Under the pieces are notes generated by a model that had not been told where the DNA came from, did no database searches, and saw only the letters and a program-made list of their open reading frames with translations. A stretch of DNA of 16,897 nt from a virus. Where the stretch lies: UHGV virus genome UHGV-0124835; one strand, written 5' to 3'. This document shows, piece after piece, positions 50 to 11,147 of the stretch. The stretch's first letter is position 1, and each line of letters starts with the position of its first letter. The position numbers and the translations under genes are program-made.

Positions 50-1363
50 TTAACTTACTGATTTTAATAAGCCTCTGGTGTCACTTTGGTGACTATGGGG
101 CATCATTGGGACATAATCTGTCAGCTTCTGATTCAGCATTGCGATCTGTTCTGCATTGCTGTCAGTCATCCATGCTCCGTATACATTGAATACCATCTGG
201 GCACTTGCATGGCCCATCTGGCTGGCAATGAAGCTTGGGTTTGCTCCGGCAGATAATGACCAGCACGCATAAGTGTGTCGTGACTGGTATGCCTTTCGAT
301 GCCTGATCCCTGCACGCTTAATGGCTGTTTCCCATGAGTCACCTACAGAATCGACTTTGTAGACAAAACCTACCTGTTCGCTTTTTCTAACCACTTGAGG
401 GTTAAACACGAAAGTACATTCATGGTTCACTGAACGTCCATATTCACGTAGTTGCACCTTGATGTTGTACTGCTTACCCAGTCTTGTCATTTCAGCCTGA
501 TTTTTCAGGACACTGATAGCGGGCTGGATAAGGTGCACAACCCTGTTTGTGCTTGCTTCAGTTTTCGGTAGAGTGAACTCACCAAGTTTCGTATAATTGC
601 GCCTGATGGTAATTGTTCCTGCCTTCAGATCGATATCTTCCCAGGCCAGGGAGACCAGTTCACCGTGACGCATTCCTGTGTACACAGCCAATGACCACAG
701 GTTTTTCGTCTGCTGATGTCGGCAAGCATCTATCAGGCGAATAAATTCGTCACGAGTTAGCGGATCTGGCTCTGCCCTGGCTCTTTTAAGAGGCTTAATT
801 CCCTGGAAGGGATTTGCTTCTAAGTAACCGTGATCTGCAGCAAACTGAAACATTCCAGCGATTGTCGTCATGTAATAATTTACAGTAACGACGCTCCGTC
901 CTTTTGCTGCTGCTTTGTTTTTCGTTGAATTCTGATACCCGGTAAGCAAATCTTTCCTGATATACAGCAATTCCTCTTTGGTTACCGATGACACCAGTCT
1001 ACTGCCTCCAATTTTCGGAACCATCGTTCTTGCAACGGATTCATAGCGATTGAATGCATTTGCAGAGATTTCCATTCGTTTCAGATCCAGCCACTTTTCT
1101 TCAAGTTCCTTCACCCTAATTTCTTTTTTACTTACCCCAAAAGCCTGAAGGTTGGGGGAGTCAGGGAACTGTGCAGCATAATCAAAGCTTCCTGTGCGGA
1201 TGGCAAAACATACTGATGTCCGCAGTTCCCCGGCGATCTTCCTGTTCTTGGCAGTGTCAGGGACACCAAGATTTTCCCTGACACGTTTACCTTTAAAATT
1301 AAACCAGATGCGTAATGTGCCGCCGTGGTTTTCGACGCCTGTTGGATATTTGACTTTATCCAT
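50..1363 (-). CDS. int: phage integrase, tyrosine recombinase family
   Basis: 437-aa track ORF; C-terminal region carries the tyrosine-recombinase pattern (RHTYACWSL ... GHASAQMVFNVYGAWM); sits at the prophage edge next to an excisionase-like gene. My hand count of the displayed text places the ATG 1 nt from the track start; track coordinates used. Confidence 0.9.
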   Translation of the reverse strand: MDKVKYPTGVENHGGTLRIWFNFKGKRVRENLGVPDTAKNRKIAGELRTSVCFAIRTGSFDYAAQFPDSPNLQAFGVSKKEIRVKELEEKWLDLKRMEISANAFNRYESVARTMVPKIGGSRLVSSVTKEELLYIRKDLLTGYQNSTKNKAAAKGRSVVTVNYYMTTIAGMFQFAADHGYLEANPFQGIKPLKRARAEPDPLTRDEFIRLIDACRHQQTKNLWSLAVYTGMRHGELVSLAWEDIDLKAGTITIRRNYTKLGEFTLPKTEASTNRVVHLIQPAISVLKNQAEMTRLGKQYNIKVQLREYGRSVNHECTFVFNPQVVRKSEQVGFVYKVDSVGDSWETAIKRAGIRHRKAYQSRHTYACWSLSAGANPSFIASQMGHASAQMVFNVYGAWMTDSNAEQIAMLNQKLTDYVPMMPHSHQSDTRGLLKSVS

Positions 1364-2141: not shown

Positions 2142-2885
2142 TCATTGATTCACCTCCTGCCTGTCGTCCGGCATTCGCTCACTACAGCTTATCCAACCAT
2201 CCGGAGTTACCGGAACTTGTGGAATGGCTGTCTGCTCTCGAACGTCATTAGGCGCTATAGGTTCTGCTGCCAACTGACTGGCATATTTGTTAATGGTAAC
2301 GATAAGCTCTTGCTCAGCCTCATCCAGACAATCACCGATACCTCGCCTGTCACCGTCAAAATCATCGAAATCGGCACGAATCCTGGCAACCTTCAGGATT
2401 GCGGACAACACCTCACTAGGAATTGCCGGATAGTTGGTTGACGTTTCCGCGATTTCCCGAAAATTATTGGTTGACGAATTCTTGTTTTCCCGAAAGTTTC
2501 CGGACTGAAGCATGGCGGCGCGGCAGGCGTTCCATATTTCGGCAGCAATATCGCGCTCGCTATCGGTTAATTTGTACGTTGAAACATAGCCAGAGAGCAT
2601 TTCTACGTTTTCCGGAGTTGCTTCTTCAGGCACTACCGGTGCTGGCGGGGCGATGCGTCCAAGCAACTTATTTACCTCTTTCGCCATCGCGTCATATTTA
2701 TCTAAATGGCGATTAGCTTCTAAGCAGACTCGGCGCATCTGATCTGAGTTAACTCGTTTAACTGGATCTGCTTCCAGCGATGCCAGCGCAATCCGTGCCA
2801 GTTCCATTTGTTCACCACGGGTAAGCCCGTTTTCAAGCGGATTTTTAATGAACAATTCAATACGTTCTTTGGTAATAGTGGTCAT
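2142..2885 (-). CDS. hypothetical phage protein with truncated DUF551-like C-terminus
   Basis: 247-aa ORF; C-terminus ...PDGWISCSERMPDDRQEVNQ* resembles the start of the DUF551 motif (WIsv.drlPe...) but stops before the rest of that domain. Confidence 0.7.
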   Translation of the reverse strand: MTTITKERIELFIKNPLENGLTRGEQMELARIALASLEADPVKRVNSDQMRRVCLEANRHLDKYDAMAKEVNKLLGRIAPPAPVVPEEATPENVEMLSGYVSTYKLTDSERDIAAEIWNACRAAMLQSGNFRENKNSSTNNFREIAETSTNYPAIPSEVLSAILKVARIRADFDDFDGDRRGIGDCLDEAEQELIVTINKYASQLAAEPIAPNDVREQTAIPQVPVTPDGWISCSERMPDDRQEVNQ

Positions 2886-2895
2886 GTGTTACTCC

Positions 2896-3159
2896 TTAAC
2901 CCGCAGTGCTTTCAACTGATGAGGGGAACAAAATCTTTTCATCAAACCCTGCATTCATATCATTGACAGCAACACACCAATCCATTGACGAACGATTATC
3001 AAGAGCCTCCATGATTTCATCCATGCGGCGCAGGTCATACAGGTAAATGCTTTTATCGCCAATGGTGTAAAAACCAATTTTTTTCGGTGATGGGCAGCGA
3101 TCAAGAACGTCCTGTAATTCGCTCAACCATGCTTGTTCTTTTTTTGTCAAAGTTGCCAT
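2896..3159 (-). CDS. hypothetical protein (87 aa)
   Basis: Track ORF 2896..3321 trimmed to the internal ATG at 3159 (MATLTKKEQAWLSELQ...), preceded by AAGGAGAG and lying 1 nt after the TGA stop of the upstream gene. Confidence 0.6.
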   Translation of the reverse strand: MATLTKKEQAWLSELQDVLDRCPSPKKIGFYTIGDKSIYLYDLRRMDEIMEALDNRSSMDWCVAVNDMNAGFDEKILFPSSVESTAG

Positions 3160-3160
3160 A

Positions 3161-3784
3161 TCACTCTCCTTTGATGCGAATGCCAGCGGCGCGCTCGGCT
3201 TCACTTTGTTCCCAAAACCACTTGTGAAGCTCCATAAGCTTTTCGTCAATCGGTGCATATTTGCGATTAAAGTAGGCCTGAGCATCTTTCTCAGATTCGT
3301 CCGGCAATTCGCCTGGGCCAAACAGTGTGTTATAAATCCATGCCAGTCCGCTTTTAGCGTCGCCAGTTGCCTGCCATTCGATAATCGCAGCCTGCATGAC
3401 CAGAATGTTTTTCCCGATTAACAGGTCCAGCTCTTTGAACCGGTTGCGGATGTATGCATTCTCGCTTTGTAATTTTGCGTTGCGCTTCTCTGCGGCTTCC
3501 AGCTCAACACGCAGCTTCCCTACAGTTAGCGCAATTTCCTCGTTCTCCTGATCGCGGCGTTTTATGTATTGCTGGTTTCTTTCCCGTTCATCCAGTAGTG
3601 CCAGCACGGTTTCTGGTCCGGTCAGAAATTTGAAGGCATTGAGCGCATCAATATCCACACCGTAATCTTTAAGTTCCTGTTCACTTAACAAATCATCATC
3701 AGTTGGCAACATTAACAGGCGTTCCATTGCTGGAATTGCACGTTCTGCTGCCTCACGCAGTGCCTGGTAATTAATTTCGCTCAC
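3161..3784 (-). CDS. Ead/Ea22-like family protein
   Basis: 207-aa ORF; GTG start preceded by AAGGAGG; N-terminus MSEINYQALREAAE... matches the characteristic N-terminus of lambdoid Ea22-like proteins (from memory). Confidence 0.7.
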   Translation of the reverse strand: MSEINYQALREAAERAIPAMERLLMLPTDDDLLSEQELKDYGVDIDALNAFKFLTGPETVLALLDERERNQQYIKRRDQENEEIALTVGKLRVELEAAEKRNAKLQSENAYIRNRFKELDLLIGKNILVMQAAIIEWQATGDAKSGLAWIYNTLFGPGELPDESEKDAQAYFNRKYAPIDEKLMELHKWFWEQSEAERAAGIRIKGE

Positions 3785-3830
3785 TGGTTGCCTCCTTTGC
3801 GAAGCTCTGCGGCTAAATACTCCAACGCCA

Positions 3831-4223
3831 TTACCGGGACGCCAACAAGCACAGTTCCTTTAAACTTCTTATGCAGGTGCTCGATAGCTGTATCCACGCC
3901 CTGCGCCGTACTTCAGCCAGGAAAGCATCGGTGGCCGGAGTTTCAGGAATCCGTCTCCTCATCAGTTCTATTGCATGATTGAACCCGAAATCTTCAGCAA
4001 GAGATACGTCATCCATATTGTCATTGTCGTCCTCAATATCCCGTGGTTCTGGAATTGCAGACTTTATTACCGCATTCTCCGCCGCCAGCGCCGCGCACTT
4101 GGCCTCAAGAGCGGCAACCACTTCCTGATGGTCTTTGTACTTAACGTATGAGCCGGAGATGTCATCACCTTCGGTGTTTAGCCATGCGTCATTGCAATTC
4201 ACTGCGTAGGTTCTGATGCTCAT
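3831..4223 (-). CDS. hypothetical protein (130 aa), possibly the C-terminal part of a split Ea22-like paralog
   Basis: Track ORF 3831..4280 trimmed to the ATG at 4223 (MSIRTYAVNCNDAW...), preceded by GGGAGAG; that ATG overlaps the TGA stop of the upstream 61-aa ORF (ATGA). Confidence 0.5.
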   Translation of the reverse strand: MSIRTYAVNCNDAWLNTEGDDISGSYVKYKDHQEVVAALEAKCAALAAENAVIKSAIPEPRDIEDDNDNMDDVSLAEDFGFNHAIELMRRRIPETPATDAFLAEVRRRAWIQLSSTCIRSLKELCLLASR

Positions 4224-4405
4224 GTTGATGCTCTCCCGCCCCTGACAGACGCCAGGCCAGTCAATAAAGTATCCGCACAATGCCTACCCTCAGACGTGCG
4301 CGCAGGATAAATGCCGTTATGACCCGGCAAAATATATGCTACCCATTCATCTTGCGTTGCCTGTTCCGCCGCCTCGCGCAGTGCCTGATAGTCAATCTTG
4401 CTCAC
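4220..4405 (-). CDS. Ead/Ea22-like N-terminal fragment or short paralog (61 aa)
   Basis: GTG start with AAGGAGG; N-terminus MSKIDYQALREAAEQATQDEW parallels the gene at 3161..3784; the C-terminal half is Arg/Gly-rich and looks out of frame. Confidence 0.45.
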   Translation of the reverse strand: MSKIDYQALREAAEQATQDEWVAYILPGHNGIYPARTSEGRHCADTLLTGLASVRGGRAST

Positions 4406-4706
4406 TGGCAGCCTCCTTTGCCGGGATTTCTAACTTTTGAGTGGTTGTATCAAATTCAAACAACTTAACCACGTCATCAAACAGGACATAATCACCATCA
4501 GGATCTTCAGTCATATCTGCGCCACAATCCTGACCGCACGAGTCGCAACCATCCATATCAAGCTCGTATCGCTTCAGGTTTGCGATATTTGATAAATTCA
4601 GCGCCAGTACAGCCAGGTCATAAACCTCTTCGGCAGTGACATCGCTGTTCAGTCCCATTTCATGGCGATATATGATTTTTTCTACTCGTTGTTTTGTGAT
4701 CGTCAT
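4392..4706 (-). CDS. hypothetical protein (104 aa)
   Basis: Track ORF 4392..4730 trimmed to the ATG at 4706 (MTITKQRVEKIIYRHEMG...) preceded by GAAGAGGAAA; its stop overlaps the start of the next gene. Confidence 0.6.
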   Translation of the reverse strand: MTITKQRVEKIIYRHEMGLNSDVTAEEVYDLAVLALNLSNIANLKRYELDMDGCDSCGQDCGADMTEDPDGDYVLFDDVVKLFEFDTTTQKLEIPAKEAASEQD

Positions 4707-4977
4707 TTTCCTCTTCACTCCGATATACAAGGATTACTACACCCCCTCTGCTGATTGCGCGAGCTGGATCCCCTGGTTCCATGCCGTCAATTCCGAAGGC
4801 TTCGGAAAACGCATTCATTGCCTTCTGGCGTTCATCCTGCTTACGGCGTTTATTCCATTTTTTCAGGAACAACAGCGACAGCCACCGTCCGCTGCAGAAC
4901 ACGATGTAAAAATAACCAAGGAGCGCCAGGCCGACATTCAGGGCCGTTTCTATGGTTAGTTGTGAGTCAGTTGCCAT
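4660..4977 (-). CDS. small membrane protein (one predicted TM helix)
   Basis: ATG at 4977 preceded by AGGTAAG; hydrophobic stretch ALNVGLALLGYFYIVFCSGRWLSLLFL followed by a basic KKWNKRRK segment; the true C-terminus is uncertain because of overlap with the next gene. Confidence 0.5.
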   Translation of the reverse strand: MATDSQLTIETALNVGLALLGYFYIVFCSGRWLSLLFLKKWNKRRKQDERQKAMNAFSEAFGIDGMEPGDPARAISRGGVVILVYRSEEENDDHKTTSRKNHISP

Positions 4978-5215
4978 TTCTTACCTGTTTAAGTAACTGG
5001 TTGAACATAACACTTAGGGGATTGCTGTATCCAAACGGCAGATTGTTTACGCAGTACAGAATCATTTTGTTTTTTTCTCCAGTTCGTACTATTAACCCAT
5101 TCCACAATAACCGTGATAATTCATTACTGATAGAAGTTGCGCTTCTTCCAAGTGCGAGGGATATATCTTCTCTACTGCAATCTGGATTTTCCTGGATATA
5201 CTCGATAACGGTCAT
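4967..5215 (-). CDS. small winged-helix-like putative DNA-binding protein (83 aa)
   Basis: Track ORF 4967..5257 trimmed to the ATG at 5215 (MTVIEYIQENPDCSREDISLALGRSATSISNELSRLLWNGLIVRTGEK...) preceded by AAGGGA, directly after the TAA of the upstream gene. Confidence 0.55.
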   Translation of the reverse strand: MTVIEYIQENPDCSREDISLALGRSATSISNELSRLLWNGLIVRTGEKNKMILYCVNNLPFGYSNPLSVMFNQLLKQVRNGN

Positions 5216-5225
5216 GTGGTCCCTT

Positions 5226-5807
5226 TTACTTAATATCTGTTTCGGATTGCATGCCATGAGTATTTATTTCGTTAATAATTTCATCCAGAAGGATTTCAAG
5301 CCCTTCTCGACCCATATCTGAAAGAATGAAACCTTTATCAGGGGAAGTAGTGAGCATTTTCTGATAAAGAAACAGCGCTCTTCCCATTCCTTCAGCTTCG
5401 CCGTATTTTTGAATTAAATTCCATTCAATATACTGTTGTAAGGCAAATCGAATGGGGCCGGGATATATCGTCATAAACCCATACATCCCGTTATATACCA
5501 CGGCGTGTTCAGTTGTTCCGTGTTCATTCAGGATATCAATTGTGCCGTTCTTGTCTTCTTCTTCGTTGATGAATGTCGTCACATACAACCATCGCCACTG
5601 AGCAACCTTCATCTCAACCGGAAGTTTACCCAGTAATCCTGCTTCGTCGGCTTGCGCCAGACACTGAAGGATACGTAAACCTCGCACATTAGGAGTATCG
5701 AATTCTCCGGCATCCAGACGACGTATGGCGTCGTGATAATCAATCGTCATACTGCCAGTTCGTATACCATTGGCTGTTGCTTCAGCCTGGAATTCATCGT
5801 ATTGCAT
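5226..5807 (-). CDS. hypothetical protein (193 aa)
   Basis: ATG at 5807 preceded by GAGGAA; long well-formed ORF with no motif I recognise. Confidence 0.7.
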   Translation of the reverse strand: MQYDEFQAEATANGIRTGSMTIDYHDAIRRLDAGEFDTPNVRGLRILQCLAQADEAGLLGKLPVEMKVAQWRWLYVTTFINEEEDKNGTIDILNEHGTTEHAVVYNGMYGFMTIYPGPIRFALQQYIEWNLIQKYGEAEGMGRALFLYQKMLTTSPDKGFILSDMGREGLEILLDEIINEINTHGMQSETDIK

Positions 5808-5896
5808 GATATTTATTCCTCATCTTCATCTTCATCTGCTGGTGCAATAACGTCATATCCTGCCCTTTCTGCAATAAACAGGAATGTTGAAAGAGT

Positions 5897-6001
5897 TCAT
5901 ACAAGTTCATCGTCATGAACATGGCGAATGAATATTACTTTCCCGTTTTTGATGGTCAGCAATACTCTGGTTTGTTCGTGTTCTGCTGTTTTCTGATGCA
6001 T
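5897..6001 (-). CDS. hypothetical small protein (34 aa), not in ORF track
   Basis: Hand translation MHQKTAEHEQTRVLLTIKNGKVIFIRHVHDDELV; ATG preceded by GGGAGA; the frame stays open past its TGA for 27 more codons ending in an acidic tail (ADEDEDEE). Confidence 0.3.
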   Translation of the reverse strand: MHQKTAEHEQTRVLLTIKNGKVIFIRHVHDDELV

Positions 6002-6003
6002 TA

Positions 6004-6117
6004 TTATCTCCCGTATGCTTTACGCAGAAATAAGCAGGCAATATGCATGTAATTTTCACCGTATTGTGCAATAAGGCAGGCGGTCTTGTGTGATGCCATA
6101 TTCTTTATAAAAGTCAC
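6004..6117 (-). CDS. hypothetical small protein (37 aa), not in ORF track
   Basis: GTG start 7 nt downstream of a perfect AGGAGG; TAA stop abuts the ATG of the next small ORF (TAATAATG). Confidence 0.3.
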   Translation of the reverse strand: MTFIKNMASHKTACLIAQYGENYMHIACLFLRKAYGR

Positions 6118-6195
6118 AATAAAGCCTCCTGTGGATTAAGGTTGTAACAATCCCCGGCGATAAAACCGCAATAAACGTTCAGGGCATATTTGTTG

Positions 6196-6561
6196 TTATT
6201 GCGCTAATTCTTTTTCGGCAGCAGCTTTTGTATACTCACATGCAAAACTCAGAATTTCGCTGCCGAGTGTTTTCGTTTCGTGATTACTGGACATATGTAA
6301 TACCTGTGTTGCATGCAATAAATGATAAACATTTACCGCAAATGAATCAGGCTCCAGACAAATGCCTTCGTAATTATCTTGCTGTGAGGTTGTTTCTGTC
6401 ATTGCTCCTAAAGTGCATGCGAGCCTGTTTTTGACAATTCTCTTTTCTCTAATCACTATATCGGCAACATCTATTGCCTTTACAACCTCCGGGAGAAGTT
6501 CCGGGTTTGTATAATCAAAGTCATCAACATGGAGAACAGTTATGTTTTCGAACTTTTTCAT
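6196..6561 (-). CDS. hypothetical protein (121 aa), second gene of the cI-downstream module
   Basis: ATG at 6561 preceded by GAGGAAG; no recognisable motif. Confidence 0.65.
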   Translation of the reverse strand: MKKFENITVLHVDDFDYTNPELLPEVVKAIDVADIVIREKRIVKNRLACTLGAMTETTSQQDNYEGICLEPDSFAVNVYHLLHATQVLHMSSNHETKTLGSEILSFACEYTKAAAEKELAQ

Positions 6562-6689: not shown

Positions 6690-7238
6690 TCACCATTGGT
6701 ATTGGTTCTTCCGCAGAAGAGCTTCGCGAGATAAGGGGCAAACTTGTTGAGATGCGTCATGGTGTTGCTGCTCCTCACTTTTTGGTTGCTCCGGAGGAGT
6801 AACCTCACCAGTTAACAGCCACATCGGATCGCAGCCAAGAATATTTGCCAGTGGGATAAGCATACTGATAGTTGGTTCATACTCTCCGCTCTCCCACTGG
6901 ATGATAATTTCTTCATCGAGATCGAGCAGCCTGGCGAGTTCGGCGGTTGTTAAGCCGCAGGCTTCGCGTTGGGTGCGAAGGTTAACCAGCCAGCTTTCAG
7001 GGAAGGATTGTTTTTGTTGTGCAGGAGAAGCAGCAGATAGAGCATATTCATGGATAAATTCCATTACCTCAATGCCCAGTTCCTTTGAGCGAGCACAATC
7101 CAGAAGATGGAATGTGCGTACAGCACTTAGCAAATTTGCAATATTTAATGCAAAGGAATCAAGTTCTAAGCCCTTAAGCGTAACACAGCCGCAGTTGATA
7201 AAATTAGTTGTTTCTGGAGTTGCTTTTAGTGTCTTCAT
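6690..7238 (-). CDS. XRE-family helix-turn-helix domain protein with unknown N-terminal domain
   Basis: Track ORF 6690..7268 trimmed to the ATG at 7238 (MKTLKATPETT...); residues LTTAELARLLDLDEEIIIQWESGEYEPTISMLIPLANILGCDPMWLL match the Cro/C1-type HTH consensus; the ~95-aa N-terminal region is unrecognised. Confidence 0.7.
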   Translation of the reverse strand: MKTLKATPETTNFINCGCVTLKGLELDSFALNIANLLSAVRTFHLLDCARSKELGIEVMEFIHEYALSAASPAQQKQSFPESWLVNLRTQREACGLTTAELARLLDLDEEIIIQWESGEYEPTISMLIPLANILGCDPMWLLTGEVTPPEQPKSEEQQHHDASQQVCPLSREALLRKNQYQW

Positions 7239-7350
7239 ATATCCGCCAACAATTTTAAATTGAATCAAATCAAGTTATAATTGATGGTGCGATATTATGT
7301 TTTGGGAAACAGGCTGTCAAGAAAAAATTGATATCGTATATTTCAGGCAG

Positions 7351-7372
7351 AAAAAAACGGGCAAAGCCCGTT
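7351..7372 (-). terminator. rho-independent terminator downstream of cI
   Basis: On the minus strand ACGGGC-TTT-GCCCGT followed by T7 (plus strand shows A7-CGGGC-AAA-GCCCG-TT), 12 nt after the cI stop. Confidence 0.75.
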
Positions 7373-7383
7373 AAAATCAAAGA

Positions 7384-8073
7384 CTAACCAAATCTGTTTA
7401 TGTTGAATGGTACTGATGAGATCACTTTAGACTGGATATAAAGCAGAGCTAACCCCTCTTTTTCGATGCTCCATGGTTGATAATTGGGGTTATCAGATAA
7501 CACCATGATTTTGCTTCCAATTTTTTGAAGCCTTTTCACGTAGCATTCTCCATCAAAACAAAATGCATAAATACCATCGCCATCAAAATAAGTTACTGTC
7601 TTATCAAGAAAAAGAAGGTCGCCAGGTGAGATTGTGGGAGCCATACTGTCTCCTCTGGCGTTACCTATTTCTATATTTTTGAATGCCCGATTTCCAACAA
7701 GACGTCGGGCATATTCAGGATCAAGTTCTATTGAGCGCACTACATCTATCAAGTCACCACGGACATGAGTTCCATCACCGCAACTAAACTCAACATCAAG
7801 GACATTAAATACGACGCTATCTGTTCTTGTCTGGTGTTTCTCTTGCGAGGAAAAGGTTGGTGAGGAGTCTTCACCTAAGAACCAGGATTGTGGATAACCG
7901 CTAATCTCTGATAAATGCGCGAGCTTATCACTCCGTGGAAATGTTTTTCCTGTTGTCCAGTACTGCACTGATTGCGCACTCACACCTAACTTGCGGGCCA
8001 GTTGAGCCTGAGTCCATCCTTTTGCTTTCAGCATCGCGGCTATTCGATTTTCCGTGTTTTTGACGTTCTTCAT
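7384..8073 (-). CDS. cI-like prophage repressor (N-terminal HTH, C-terminal S24 LexA-like peptidase domain)
   Basis: Track ORF trimmed to the ATG at 8073 (MKNVKNTENRIAAMLKAKGWTQAQLARKLGVSAQSVQYW...); HTH near the N-terminus and a C-terminal domain with GDSMAPTISPGDLLFLD and a KRL motif typical of S24 autocleaving repressors; divergent from a cro-like gene. Confidence 0.9.
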   Translation of the reverse strand: MKNVKNTENRIAAMLKAKGWTQAQLARKLGVSAQSVQYWTTGKTFPRSDKLAHLSEISGYPQSWFLGEDSSPTFSSQEKHQTRTDSVVFNVLDVEFSCGDGTHVRGDLIDVVRSIELDPEYARRLVGNRAFKNIEIGNARGDSMAPTISPGDLLFLDKTVTYFDGDGIYAFCFDGECYVKRLQKIGSKIMVLSDNPNYQPWSIEKEGLALLYIQSKVISSVPFNINRFG

Positions 8074-8206
8074 GACCAAATCCTGTGGGTTTCTTTACAA
8101 GGATAAATCTTTACTTGATTTTAGTGTATTCGATCCTTTTGTAACTTGCATGTTAATTTAAACTTGATGTATTCTTGATTTATAAAGTTAATATTGGTGC
8201 TTTGTT
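8074..8206. promoter_or_regulatory. immunity-region intergenic: divergent cI/cro promoters and probable operators
   Basis: 133-nt AT-rich spacer between divergent repressor genes containing four CTTG(A/C) repeats (TACTTGAT 8111, AACTTGCA 8142, AACTTGAT 8160, TTCTTGAT 8172) plus TTACAAG/CTTGTAA-like elements; exact operators and -10/-35 boxes not resolved. Confidence 0.5.
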
Positions 8207-8479
8207 ATGGAAGGAAATGATTACGACAAACTTCGTGCATTAATTGCGCAAAATGCCATAGCGCGAAATCTTGGTGTGACGCCGCAAGCGGTGAATCAGT
8301 GGTTTTCAAAAAACACAATTCCTGCTCGTTTCGTTTTACGCGTATGTGAAGTAGTTGCATGGAAGGTCACGCCACATGGCTTAAGGCCAGATCTTTATCC
8401 TCACCCTGAAGATGGAATTCCTGATTCGTTACGCAAAATTTCAAATCCAAGCTTAGCGCACACAGAGGACGAGAAGTGA
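8207..8479 (+). CDS. Cro/YdaS-like HTH transcriptional regulator
   Basis: 90-aa ORF divergent from cI; motif LGVTPQAVNQWFSKNTIPARFVLRVCEVV...GLRPDLYPHPED resembles YdaS/Cro-family proteins. Confidence 0.75.
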   Translation: MEGNDYDKLRALIAQNAIARNLGVTPQAVNQWFSKNTIPARFVLRVCEVVAWKVTPHGLRPDLYPHPEDGIPDSLRKISNPSLAHTEDEK

Positions 8480-9568: not shown

Positions 9569-9658
9569 CGGGGAGCTGTTTCGCATAAAACGGCTCCGAA
9601 ACATCCAAGAACAGTTCTAAAGATATCAGCAGCTATATGATCATTTCAAGACCAAATA

Positions 9659-9687
9659 TTGATTCTGCAATTTCGGGACGTTACACT
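9659..9687 (+). promoter_or_regulatory. sigma70-like promoter of Rha module A (TTGATT-N17-TACACT)
   Basis: Read directly: TTGATT, 17-nt spacer, TACACT; the same element recurs almost base-for-base at 10315..10343. Confidence 0.55.
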
Positions 9688-9795
9688 GTCTCTGCACCTT
9701 ATAAAGCGGGTGCCGGGGGTCGCAGCCCGGAATTGCATACGGCGATATATGACGCGCCAGCGTCTTTTTTATCGTCCGCGCTCACGCACGCCAGA

Positions 9796-9906
9796 ATTAT
9801 GGTGGGCTGGGCAGGGGAGCCGAAAGGCTCGCCGGTTTCCGTATGCGCCGGTACTGCGAACCCTGTTCAGTTCACCACCCATGAGTTTCGCAGCTCCGGT
9901 GGTGGA
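9796..9906 (+). ncRNA. c4-like antisense RNA candidate, module A
   Basis: Conserved ATTATGGTGGG box; GAAA-tetraloop hairpin 9817-9830; CCGG-closed 12-nt loop TTTCCGTATGCG (9836-9847) complementary to TGCATACGGAGG at the SD of the downstream gene; 8-bp TCACCACC/GGTGGTGG stem (9872-9879 with 9898-9905). Ends are not defined. Confidence 0.5.
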
Positions 9907-9916
9907 AGTTATCCAT

Positions 9917-9928
9917 TGCATACGGAGG
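9917..9928 (+). promoter_or_regulatory. antisense target site overlapping the SD of Rha paralog 2
   Basis: TGCATACGGAGG pairs with loop 9836-9847 over 12 positions (9 Watson-Crick plus 3 G-U); a direct repeat of the core ATTGCATACGG is at 9731-9741. Confidence 0.5.
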
Positions 9929-9936
9929 CTGCCATC

Positions 9937-10299
9937 ATGGCTACTGTCCTAACTTCCCCATTCCTAAAAATCGAAGTCGTCAACGGCAAGGCCGTTATTT
10001 TCTCCCTGCATGTTGCCTGCCATTTCAAGCGCATGCACCAGAACATCGTTGACAAAATCGAGTATCTGAACTGCTCACGCGAGTTTTTTACCCGCAATTT
10101 CATACCGGGTACTTATCACATCTACGGTGACTCCCTGCGTGGTTATTACATCACCCTTGATGGTCTGATGATGCTTCAGCTTGGGTTAAGTCTGCGCACA
10201 ATGCGGTACTACGAGAGCTGCATTGAAGCATTCCATGAGGCTGAAACCGTCCAGGGTCACTCCGCGTTCCGTCGTAATCAACGGGAGGTGCACCTATGA
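9937..10299 (+). CDS. Rha-family phage regulatory protein, paralog 2 (120 aa)
   Basis: ATG at 9937 with GGAGG 8 nt upstream; Rha-like core IEVVNGKAVIFSLHVACHFKRMHQNIVDKIEYLNCSREF...YYITLDGLMML. The track ORF extends upstream to 9637 through the leader; that extension is judged non-coding. Confidence 0.65.
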   Translation: MATVLTSPFLKIEVVNGKAVIFSLHVACHFKRMHQNIVDKIEYLNCSREFFTRNFIPGTYHIYGDSLRGYYITLDGLMMLQLGLSLRTMRYYESCIEAFHEAETVQGHSAFRRNQREVHL

Positions 10300-10314
10300 T
10301 CCGCCACCAGCATA

Positions 10315-10343
10315 TTGATTCTGCAATTCCGGGACGTTACACT
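10315..10343 (+). promoter_or_regulatory. sigma70-like promoter of Rha module B (TTGATT-N17-TACACT)
   Basis: Same element and spacing as 9659..9687, inside a ~60-nt block nearly identical between the two modules. Confidence 0.55.
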
Positions 10344-10451
10344 GTCTCCGCACCTTATAAAGCGGGTGCCGGGCGTGGAAACCCGAAATTCAATATAGAG
10401 CACAACCGCGCTCATGCGGTTTTTTCGTGTCATGAGCATCGTTACGCCCAA

Positions 10452-10564
10452 ATTATGGTGGGGCGTGCAGGGCCAACTTCGGTTGGGCCGGGTTCTATGT
10501 TGACCGGTATTTCCACCCCTGTACGTCTCACCACCTATATGGTCGTGGAAAGCCTTGGTGGTGA
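10452..10564 (+). ncRNA. c4-like antisense RNA candidate, module B
   Basis: Same architecture as module A with compensatory changes: UUCG-tetraloop hairpin CCAAC-TTCG-GTTGG (10473-10486); CCGG-closed 12-nt loop GTTCTATGTTGA (10492-10503) complementary to TCAACATAGGGG at the SD of the downstream gene; conserved TCACCACC/GGTGGTGA stem. Confidence 0.5.
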
Positions 10565-10575
10565 GTTCATTGAAT

Positions 10576-10587
10576 TCAACATAGGGG
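10576..10587 (+). promoter_or_regulatory. antisense target site overlapping the SD of Rha paralog 3
   Basis: TCAACATAGGGG pairs with loop 10492-10503 (9 Watson-Crick plus 2 G-U); an upstream near-repeat TCAATATAGAG is at 10390-10400. Confidence 0.5.
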
Positions 10588-10595
10588 CTGTCACC

Positions 10596-11147
10596 ATGAC
10601 TACTCTCCCAACCCAATCTCACCCTGAAATCACGATTATCAATGGTCGCGTTGTCACCACATCTCTTGCAGTAGCTAATTACTTTACTAAACGGCATGAG
10701 CGGGTTTTAGATAGAATTAGAAACCTCGAATGTTCCGCTGAATTTACTGAACACAATTTTGTGTTAAGTGAATACACCGACGCATCAGGCCGCAAACTCC
10801 CTTGTTACCAAATCACCCGCGACGGTTTTGCGTTTCTTGCCATGGGCTTCACTGGTAAACGTGCTGCCCGGTTCAAAGAGGCATACATCAACGCCTTTAA
10901 CCTGATGGAGAAGAGTTTATCAGGTGCCGATGCGTCTGATATGTCAGCTGTCGCACGAAACGCCAGAGGCGTATACCTGCATTTGCGTGAAATCCATCAA
11001 ATCTGGACAAGCCAGCTTTATCCAATGCTTAAGGCCGTTGAATCTCCGCTGGCTAGCAAACTGTACGACCGTGTTGGTGATGCTGTTTTTGGCGCTGCAC
11101 TTGTTGATTCCAGGCTGAATGGTTCTGACAAGGAGGTTCGCCCATGA
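10596..11147 (+). CDS. Rha-family phage regulatory protein, paralog 3 (183 aa)
   Basis: ATG at 10596 with AGGGG 8 nt upstream; Rha-like core ITIINGRVVTTSLAVANYFTKRHERVLDRIRNLECSAEF...YQITRDGFAFLAMGFTGKRAARFKEAYINAFN. The track ORF extends upstream to 10296 through the leader. Confidence 0.65.
   Translation: MTTLPTQSHPEITIINGRVVTTSLAVANYFTKRHERVLDRIRNLECSAEFTEHNFVLSEYTDASGRKLPCYQITRDGFAFLAMGFTGKRAARFKEAYINAFNLMEKSLSGADASDMSAVARNARGVYLHLREIHQIWTSQLYPMLKAVESPLASKLYDRVGDAVFGAALVDSRLNGSDKEVRP

Follow-up and report, generated by a model that had tools for sequence, protein, structure and literature searches.

Layout of the leftward early region

The window, that is, the whole stretch of 16,897 nucleotides that was analysed, covers the left half of a lambdoid prophage. 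The integrase gene occupies positions 50..1363 on the minus strand, and the gene for the cI-type repressor, which combines an HTH domain with Peptidase_S24, lies on the same strand at 7384..8079. A YdaS/Cro-like gene is found on the plus strand at 8207..8479, and to its right there are three Rha-domain genes and replication genes of the DnaC/DnaB type. Two tandem units, each consisting of isrK sRNA and C4 antisense RNA, are also present on the plus strand at 9694-9882 and 10350-10538 (Rfam, 59-83 bits, above the gathering score). Two adjacent genes encoding Ash and Rha domains (9637..10299 and 10296..11147) each contain one unit in their 5' part, and the arrangement looks like a duplicated antirepressor cassette under antisense control of the P1/P7 style.

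On the other side of cI, a terminator-like hairpin (7372..7356, minus strand) directly follows the cI stop codon. A candidate pL, TTGACA-17-TAATAT, is recognised at 7320..7292 on the minus strand by its near-consensus match, and it is bracketed by two candidate oL palindromes at 7269-7285 (ATCAAGTTATAATTGAT) and 7316-7332 (GTCAAGAAAAAATTGAT). Palindromes of the form ATCAA-N7-TTGAT, with one mismatch allowed, occur just three times in the window, the third being located at 8103-8119 between cI and cro. This count is unremarkable in itself; the placement of all three in the two intergenic stretches flanking cI has a chance probability of about 3e-6.

Two genes lie between the candidate promoter and the small open reading frames that are the subject of this work. 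The first encodes a 192-aa HTH protein of the XRE type (6690..7268, minus strand; Pfam HTH_3, E = 5e-11; phrog_4836), and the second, the immediate upstream neighbour of the small ORFs, encodes a 121-aa homologue of phiP27 L08 (6196..6561, minus strand; phrog_5451). Since the candidate pL/oL region adjoins cI, both would precede the small ORFs. The 192-aa HTH gene is most likely the first gene of the leftward operon and, judging by the consensus promoter match, the small genes are likely to be about third and fourth in it. The preliminary description had assigned the small ORFs to the first-gene position, where lambda encodes N and where other phages put small host-takeover or anti-defence proteins. 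This is not supported, as two genes would intervene and neither small protein matches an N-like, host-takeover or defence-related family; no match to N-like antiterminator families was obtained for the 37-aa or the 62-aa protein in Pfam, PHROG or NCBIfam. The operon layout is thereby altered, with a 192-aa HTH gene as the likely first leftward gene and no N-like gene at the position of the small ORFs.

The 121-aa ORF matches phrog_5451 over its full length, and the RefSeq annotation has just its C-terminal 68 aa. A segment of about 50 residues is common to the 192-aa HTH and 121-aa genes, both of which match phrog_4587 and phrog_5451, and the same two genes contain a repeat family (D1/D3/D7/D9) with a spacing of 812-818 nt. 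Taken at face value, this suggests a partial internal duplication.

The constant 3' neighbour of the small ORFs is a 193-aa gene (5226..5807, minus strand), a homologue of phiP27 L06 that matches phrog_1515 with E = 2.4e-90 and has its own ribosome-binding site, GAGGA. Just 3' of it there is a MarR-like winged-helix ORF (4967..5257, minus strand; phrog_1687, E = 1e-24), probably of 82-84 aa with a start near 5215. This ORF is without annotation in phage PhiR49_2 and in the RefSeq annotation of E. coli AR_0372, is annotated in Stx1 phages and is called in metagenome contigs. Searches of Pfam, NCBIfam and PADLOC returned no match for the 37-aa, 62-aa, 193-aa or 121-aa protein, and PHROGs contained none for the 37-aa protein; PADLOC consists of defence models, and its negative result bears on defence functions.

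A gene interrupted at codon 35

The first of the small ORFs is an intact 37-aa frame (MTFIKNMASHKTACLIAQYGENYMHIACLFLRKAYGR; MTFIK...LRKAYGR) at 6004..6117 on the minus strand, which runs from a GTG at 6117 to a TAA at 6004-6006 and is preceded by the Shine-Dalgarno sequence AGGAGG (6130..6125), 7 nt 5' of the GTG. The second, of 34 aa, extends on the same strand over 5897..6001, from an ATG at 6001 to a TGA at 5897-5899, and its Shine-Dalgarno sequence GGGAGA (6012..6007) is contained in the final codons of the 37-aa gene. The two are joined by the junction TAATAATG, which is read as TAA-TA-ATG, so that the second start is found 2 nt past the first stop. Beyond the TGA the same frame stays open for 27 codons (TLSTFLFIAERAGYDVIAPADEDEDEE; 5816..5896) and ends with a TAA at 5813-5815. 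Rfam contains no RNA element matching the region from 5800 to 6200. The starts, ribosome-binding sites, junction and tail are all located where the preliminary description had put them. Its remark that the 27-codon run is not significant alone also holds, since a sequence of this base composition would show such a run by chance with a probability of about 0.24.

Past the TGA the frame contains no ATG, GTG or TTG; consequently, the tail cannot be a separate gene. It can be read as the 3' part of a longer gene. The closest public relatives of the window are PhiR49_2, which is 99.9% identical over window positions 5600-6400, and E. coli AR_0372, and in both of them a single intact 62-aa CDS is annotated over 5813..6001 (WP_021556324.1 in PGAP). 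In a 331-nt alignment, TGA versus GGA is the sole difference from PhiR49_2 and one of two from AR_0372. The mutated base is 5899, where a coding-strand G to T change converts GGA (Gly) into the TGA nonsense codon at codon 35 (5897..5899, minus strand). When Gly35 is restored, the 62-aa sequence matches phrog_340 with E = 1.1e-22, residues 2-61 being aligned with profile positions 17-76 of 85, and the match thus crosses the position of the stop. The window copy, which lacks an uninterrupted frame over the whole domain, is a disrupted allele of a phrog_340 member, homologous to phiP27 L07, at 5813..6001 on the minus strand. The 193-aa gene has its ribosome-binding site within the last codons of this 62-aa gene.

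The 3' end of the gene encodes an acidic tail (5816..5836, minus strand) built from hexanucleotide repeats of the GATGAA type, and prophages that are otherwise nearly identical differ in the number of copies. The relatives are accordingly proteins of 60-72 aa with tails ranging from DEDEE to DEDEDEDEDEDEDEDEE. A 42-aa alternative frame at 5794..5922 was dismissed as chance: it is open because of the GATGAA repeat, and it appears as a protein just in frameshifted database entries.

The distribution of the alleles was assessed in 80 related loci, which comprise two GenBank/RefSeq records and 78 IMG/VR contigs. Of these, 79 have GGA at codon 35, and the remaining locus, L080, carries a 1-nt deletion at this point that shifts the frame. 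Identical or near-identical intact ORFs of 60-72 aa are found in 78 loci, the exceptions being L079, at a contig end, and L080. The earlier proposal that the TGA and the open tail are coincidental is contradicted both by these intact copies and by the phrog_340 match across the stop. Among complete E. coli genomes, 136 were matched by a 57-nt probe with the TGA at its centre; in 135 of these the match differed by one base, and the exact TGA allele was absent from all 136.

The TGA allele is nevertheless recorded repeatedly. The exact 34-aa product is known from 60 contigs, and the identical TGA occurs in nine loci that were assembled independently from various samples in ENA, JGI and Logan, which identifies it as a real allele and not an error. 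These nine loci represent one near-clonal prophage, whose identity to the window is 99.8-100% in alignments of up to 12 kb; it is integrated beside a DUF72 gene and has a recombinant right arm in a few cases. Over 351 nt around the gene they are unchanged, except for the in-frame loss of one GATGAA unit in one locus, and this points to one recent, inherited mutational event. By comparison of the alleles, the TGA is the derived state and is confined to one prophage lineage. Of the explanations first offered for the stop, a pseudogenising mutation is therefore the one that agrees with the GGA codon in 79 of 80 loci, and the search for homologues with a sense codon in place of the TGA gave GGA, or another codon for a small residue, as the rule.

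Intact alleles are much more frequent, with individual exact sequences present on 1000 or more contigs. The TGA is also not the only disruption of the 62-aa gene. Other disrupted alleles include a 41-aa form (WP_284676235.1, 31 contigs), 56-aa alleles, and frameshifts in the database sequences P0021, P0025 and P0026 and in L080; the public records of disrupted alleles are P0081, P0082/83, P0021/25/26 and L080. Some of the truncated records of this gene are partial CDS at contig ends.

Families and selection

When 1.84 billion representatives were searched exhaustively with HMMER, 40 clusters of the 62-aa family were found at an E of 0.001 or better, mostly proteins of 60-80 aa. They have the motif R.LLTIENG.V...DE..[AG]S..TF...A..AGY.V.PP, which is conserved on both sides of position 35, and position 35 itself is nearly always occupied by a small residue, mostly A or G. 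An AlphaFold model built from the family alignment (pLDDT 88) contains strands at residues 13-18 and 21-27 and a helix at 37-46, with the stop at codon 35 falling between the beta-hairpin and the helix of the modelled domain. Some family members carry two copies of the domain, and in one (P0051) it lies C-terminal to Phage_pRha (PF09669). The latter arrangement agrees with weak matches of the 62-aa protein to the C-terminal parts of two PHROGs labelled 'anti-repressor', phrog_4792 and phrog_2379. A decoy idea, in which the three Rha-domain proteins of the window would themselves bear the 62-aa domain C-terminally, was rejected on hhalign probabilities of about 1% or less. Structural or sequence relatives of known function were not found for the 62-aa protein, and a literature search on phiP27 L07 yielded nothing relevant.

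Selection on the 62-aa gene differs with the depth of the comparison. The restored protein is 43% identical to phiP27 L07, with a dN/dS of about 0.20, and the 193-aa gene gives 0.17 against phiP27 L06; these ratios are rough because synonymous sites are saturated in the comparisons with phiP27. Among close E. coli relatives, the 62-aa gene has 9 synonymous and 27 non-synonymous changes versus 67 and 45 in the 193-aa gene (Fisher p = 0.0005). Coding constraint on the 62-aa gene is thus apparent in the deeper comparisons only. Given the lack of a synonymous excess and the presence of other disrupted alleles, its recent evolution in E. coli is either relaxed or diversifying.

The 37-aa gene presents a different picture. 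In 79 of the 80 related loci its frame is open from the homologous start, which is GTG in 52 sequences (the window counted) and ATG in 28; in L029, a recombination breakpoint replaces the start or first part of the ORF. Variable sites in the related loci are distributed over codon positions 1, 2 and 3 as 6, 1 and 10, a third-position excess with p = 0.03, and the ratio of synonymous to non-synonymous changes is 11:7 in frame versus 5:13 and 1:16 in the other two frames. The copy in phiP27 (MTFLKHKASYKTACLIAQHGDSYLHIASLYLRKAYGR), which is unannotated there, has 17 synonymous changes and 13 non-synonymous ones, most of the latter conservative, corresponding to a dN/dS of about 0.07.

Homologues of the 37-aa protein were sought by tblastn on phages and by a scan of genome contigs. 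Proteins of 32-38 aa were recovered from 19 genome loci of other Enterobacterales and from two phages, SaltyDalty, where the gene is annotated, and Cronobacter phage ENT39118, where it is unannotated. The prophage copies belong to Citrobacter, Trabulsiella, Phytobacter, Enterobacter, Superficieibacter, Pseudocitrobacter, Atlantibacter, Kosakonia, Buttiauxella, Raoultella and Pantoea, and the family spans at least a dozen genera of Enterobacterales. The homologues in these phages and genera start with ATG, have a conserved Gly in the centre and end in LRKAYG[R] with hardly any variation. In 17 of the 19 loci of other genera nothing interrupts the frame from the homologous start onwards, and in the other two the match starts a few residues in. 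The 90%-identity cluster of the peptide was rejected as evidence of relatedness, as it also includes unrelated 119-aa proteins. A single-sequence structure model consists of one long helix (pLDDT 78) and is weakly informative.

Frame-specific substitutions, the low dN/dS against phiP27 and the conservation of start and stop across genera together argue that the 37-aa ORF is not a chance frame, and these comparisons mark it as a real, strongly constrained microprotein gene. The conservation and synonymous-substitution analysis proposed for the locus thus identifies both small ORFs as conserved coding genes. The preliminary description had called them untracked. This does not apply to the 62-aa gene, which is annotated by PGAP and in phage records; it applies in part to the 37-aa ORF, which PGAP skips in the two RefSeq genomes checked and which some phage records annotate.

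The order of the genes in other genera is usually a cI-like repressor, about 1 kb of further sequence, the 37-aa gene, a 119-aa gene, a gene of the 62-aa family and, in some loci, the 193-aa gene. The 62-aa-family gene follows in 14 of the 19 genome loci of other Enterobacterales, and the 193-aa gene lies 3' of it in Citrobacter and Raoultella loci too. In these loci (L096-L114) the string of early left genes is found at about 2500-4600, and the 119-aa protein belongs to the 'Fels-1 prophage protein' family. The lineage of the window has lost the 119-aa gene, and the 37-aa and 62-aa genes abut as TAA-TA-ATG because of this absence. Mosaic breakpoints are present on both sides of the 37-aa gene. 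The homology of E. coli razor3 to the window stops at about 6001 and is followed by a 119-aa gene, and in phiP27 the 121-aa protein is 95% identical and the 37-aa, 62-aa and 193-aa genes are all deeply diverged.

Interpretation and comparison with known systems

It is very probable that the 34-aa ORF and the 27 codons after it constitute one 62-aa gene, that the gene ahead of it is the conserved 37-aa gene, and that the TGA is a routine, derived inactivating mutation as opposed to a site of read-through. Two consecutive small protein genes would then be carried by the leftward early transcription unit of the prophage. A single G-to-T transversion in this lineage has changed Gly35 from GGA to TGA. 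Ribosomes initiating at the ATG 2 nt past the 37-aa stop would release a 34-residue fragment, predicted to consist of the N-terminal tail and the hairpin and to be devoid of the helix and of the AGY.V.PP segment that the family conserves. The other 27 codons represent the stranded 3' half of the gene, and the 193-aa gene would still be translated from its own ribosome-binding site. Because the stop removes the helix and the AGY.V.PP segment of the modelled domain, the 34-aa product is probably null or inactive. Since the TGA allele persists in many samples, the fragment may have a residual or new role, or the loss of the gene may offer an advantage.

The persistence of the allele also enters into the case for programmed read-through or recoding of the TGA, which would supply both the 34-aa and the 62-aa product at a useful frequency. 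This explanation, raised in the preliminary description, can further draw on the 27 open codons past the stop and on the stop context TGA-A, which is not the strongest context for termination. The open tail is accounted for by the recent age of the mutation, the TGA-allele loci being without further change in 351 nt. The stop is derived, restricted to one near-clonal prophage and not conserved among homologues; a sense codon occupies its position in all other homologues, close and distant, and almost always specifies a small residue (mostly G or A), so that the insertion of Trp would place a bulky residue there. Rfam revealed no recoding signal in the window. Recoding is consequently very improbable, and basal read-through of UGA, perhaps a percent or so, would leave traces of a G35W full-length protein. 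An error of sequencing or assembly, with GGA as the true codon, would explain the single-base difference from the closest complete genomes and the absence of the TGA from the 136 complete E. coli genomes carrying the segment. It is hardly credible in view of the identical TGA in at least nine independently assembled contigs (ENA, JGI, Logan) and of the 60 contigs that yield the 34-aa product. There is practically no likelihood that the region is a non-coding leader or intergenic stretch in which the small ORFs are open by chance. Both are short, neither has a Pfam or NCBIfam match, and PGAP omits the 37-aa ORF; against this stand the frame-specific substitutions and low dN/dS of the 37-aa ORF, start and stop positions kept across genera, and, for the 62-aa protein, the phrog_340 match, the family of 40 clusters and a confident model.

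A further proposal concerns the reason for the spread of the stop. The loss of the 62-aa gene could be an adaptive or neutral domestication, in which a gene that is dispensable or mildly harmful in lysogens is lost and the TGA spreads with a successful host clone. Several independent disrupted alleles are in line with this, as is the near-neutral ratio of synonymous to non-synonymous changes among close relatives, unlike that of the 193-aa gene. The far greater frequency of intact alleles (single sequences on 1000 or more contigs) and the long-term dN/dS of 0.2 speak against it, and some of the truncated records are partial CDS at contig ends. Domestication is therefore a possibility of less than even weight. 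It refines the account of a nonsense mutation, with which it is compatible, and under it the disrupted alleles would be either tolerated or favoured. A more speculative proposal, which is rather unlikely, is that the 37-aa protein is a functionally important factor of the early operon, for example a modulator of a repressor or of a host target, and that, separately, the 62-aa protein is a free-standing version of the C-terminal interaction domain of Rha proteins that tunes such regulators. If the latter were true, the near-neutral or diversifying pattern of the 62-aa gene and its recurrent disruptions in E. coli would reflect conflict and not decay.

Under the preferred reading, that of an ordinary nonsense mutation, the finding at the stop is an ordinary one, and both the intact 62-aa protein and the exact truncated product are already in public databases. 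In this lineage, 5813..6001 should be annotated as a pseudogene and not as a 34-aa protein. The 37-aa gene is widely conserved, often omitted by automated annotation and without a curated family, and the breadth and constraint of its family are the part that remains mildly interesting.

Among known systems, the closest is the family itself. phrog_340, phiP27 L07 and WP_021556324.1 belong to one family, and phiP27 L07 likewise lies between the 37-aa ORF and L06, the homologue of the 193-aa gene. The window copy differs from the other phrog_340 members in being cut at codon 35 by the TGA, and its acidic DE tail is characteristic of the E. coli subgroup and missing from most of the distant members. 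The Rha-type 'anti-repressor' proteins (phrog_4792 and phrog_2379, where this label is annotation only, and P0051) have the same hairpin-helix domain of about 45 residues at the C-terminus, whereas the 62-aa protein is that domain alone, without Phage_pRha (PF09669) or any other DNA-binding part. The likeness to lambda N goes no further than small gene size and a place on the leftward early transcript of a lambdoid prophage. Unlike N, the small genes are probably not in the first position and have no N-family match, and neither protein contains an arginine-rich N-terminal motif.

TF-smORF modules are defined by a transcription factor and a small gene that it activates, the small gene being transcribed divergently (Silpe et al. 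2023, PMC10432266). The locus is similar to these modules in that small proteins are encoded near cI and a gene for an XRE-type transcription factor. In contrast to them, the HTH gene points the same way as the small genes (minus strand) and is separated from them by the 121-aa gene, and identity with a TF-smORF induction module was rejected on gene orientation. By analogy, a small protein acting on a repressor is possible as a working model. As regards the stop itself, the locus corresponds without notable difference to ordinary prophage pseudogenes, which show the same single, derived and lineage-restricted nonsense change, no secondary decay and other sporadic disruptions.
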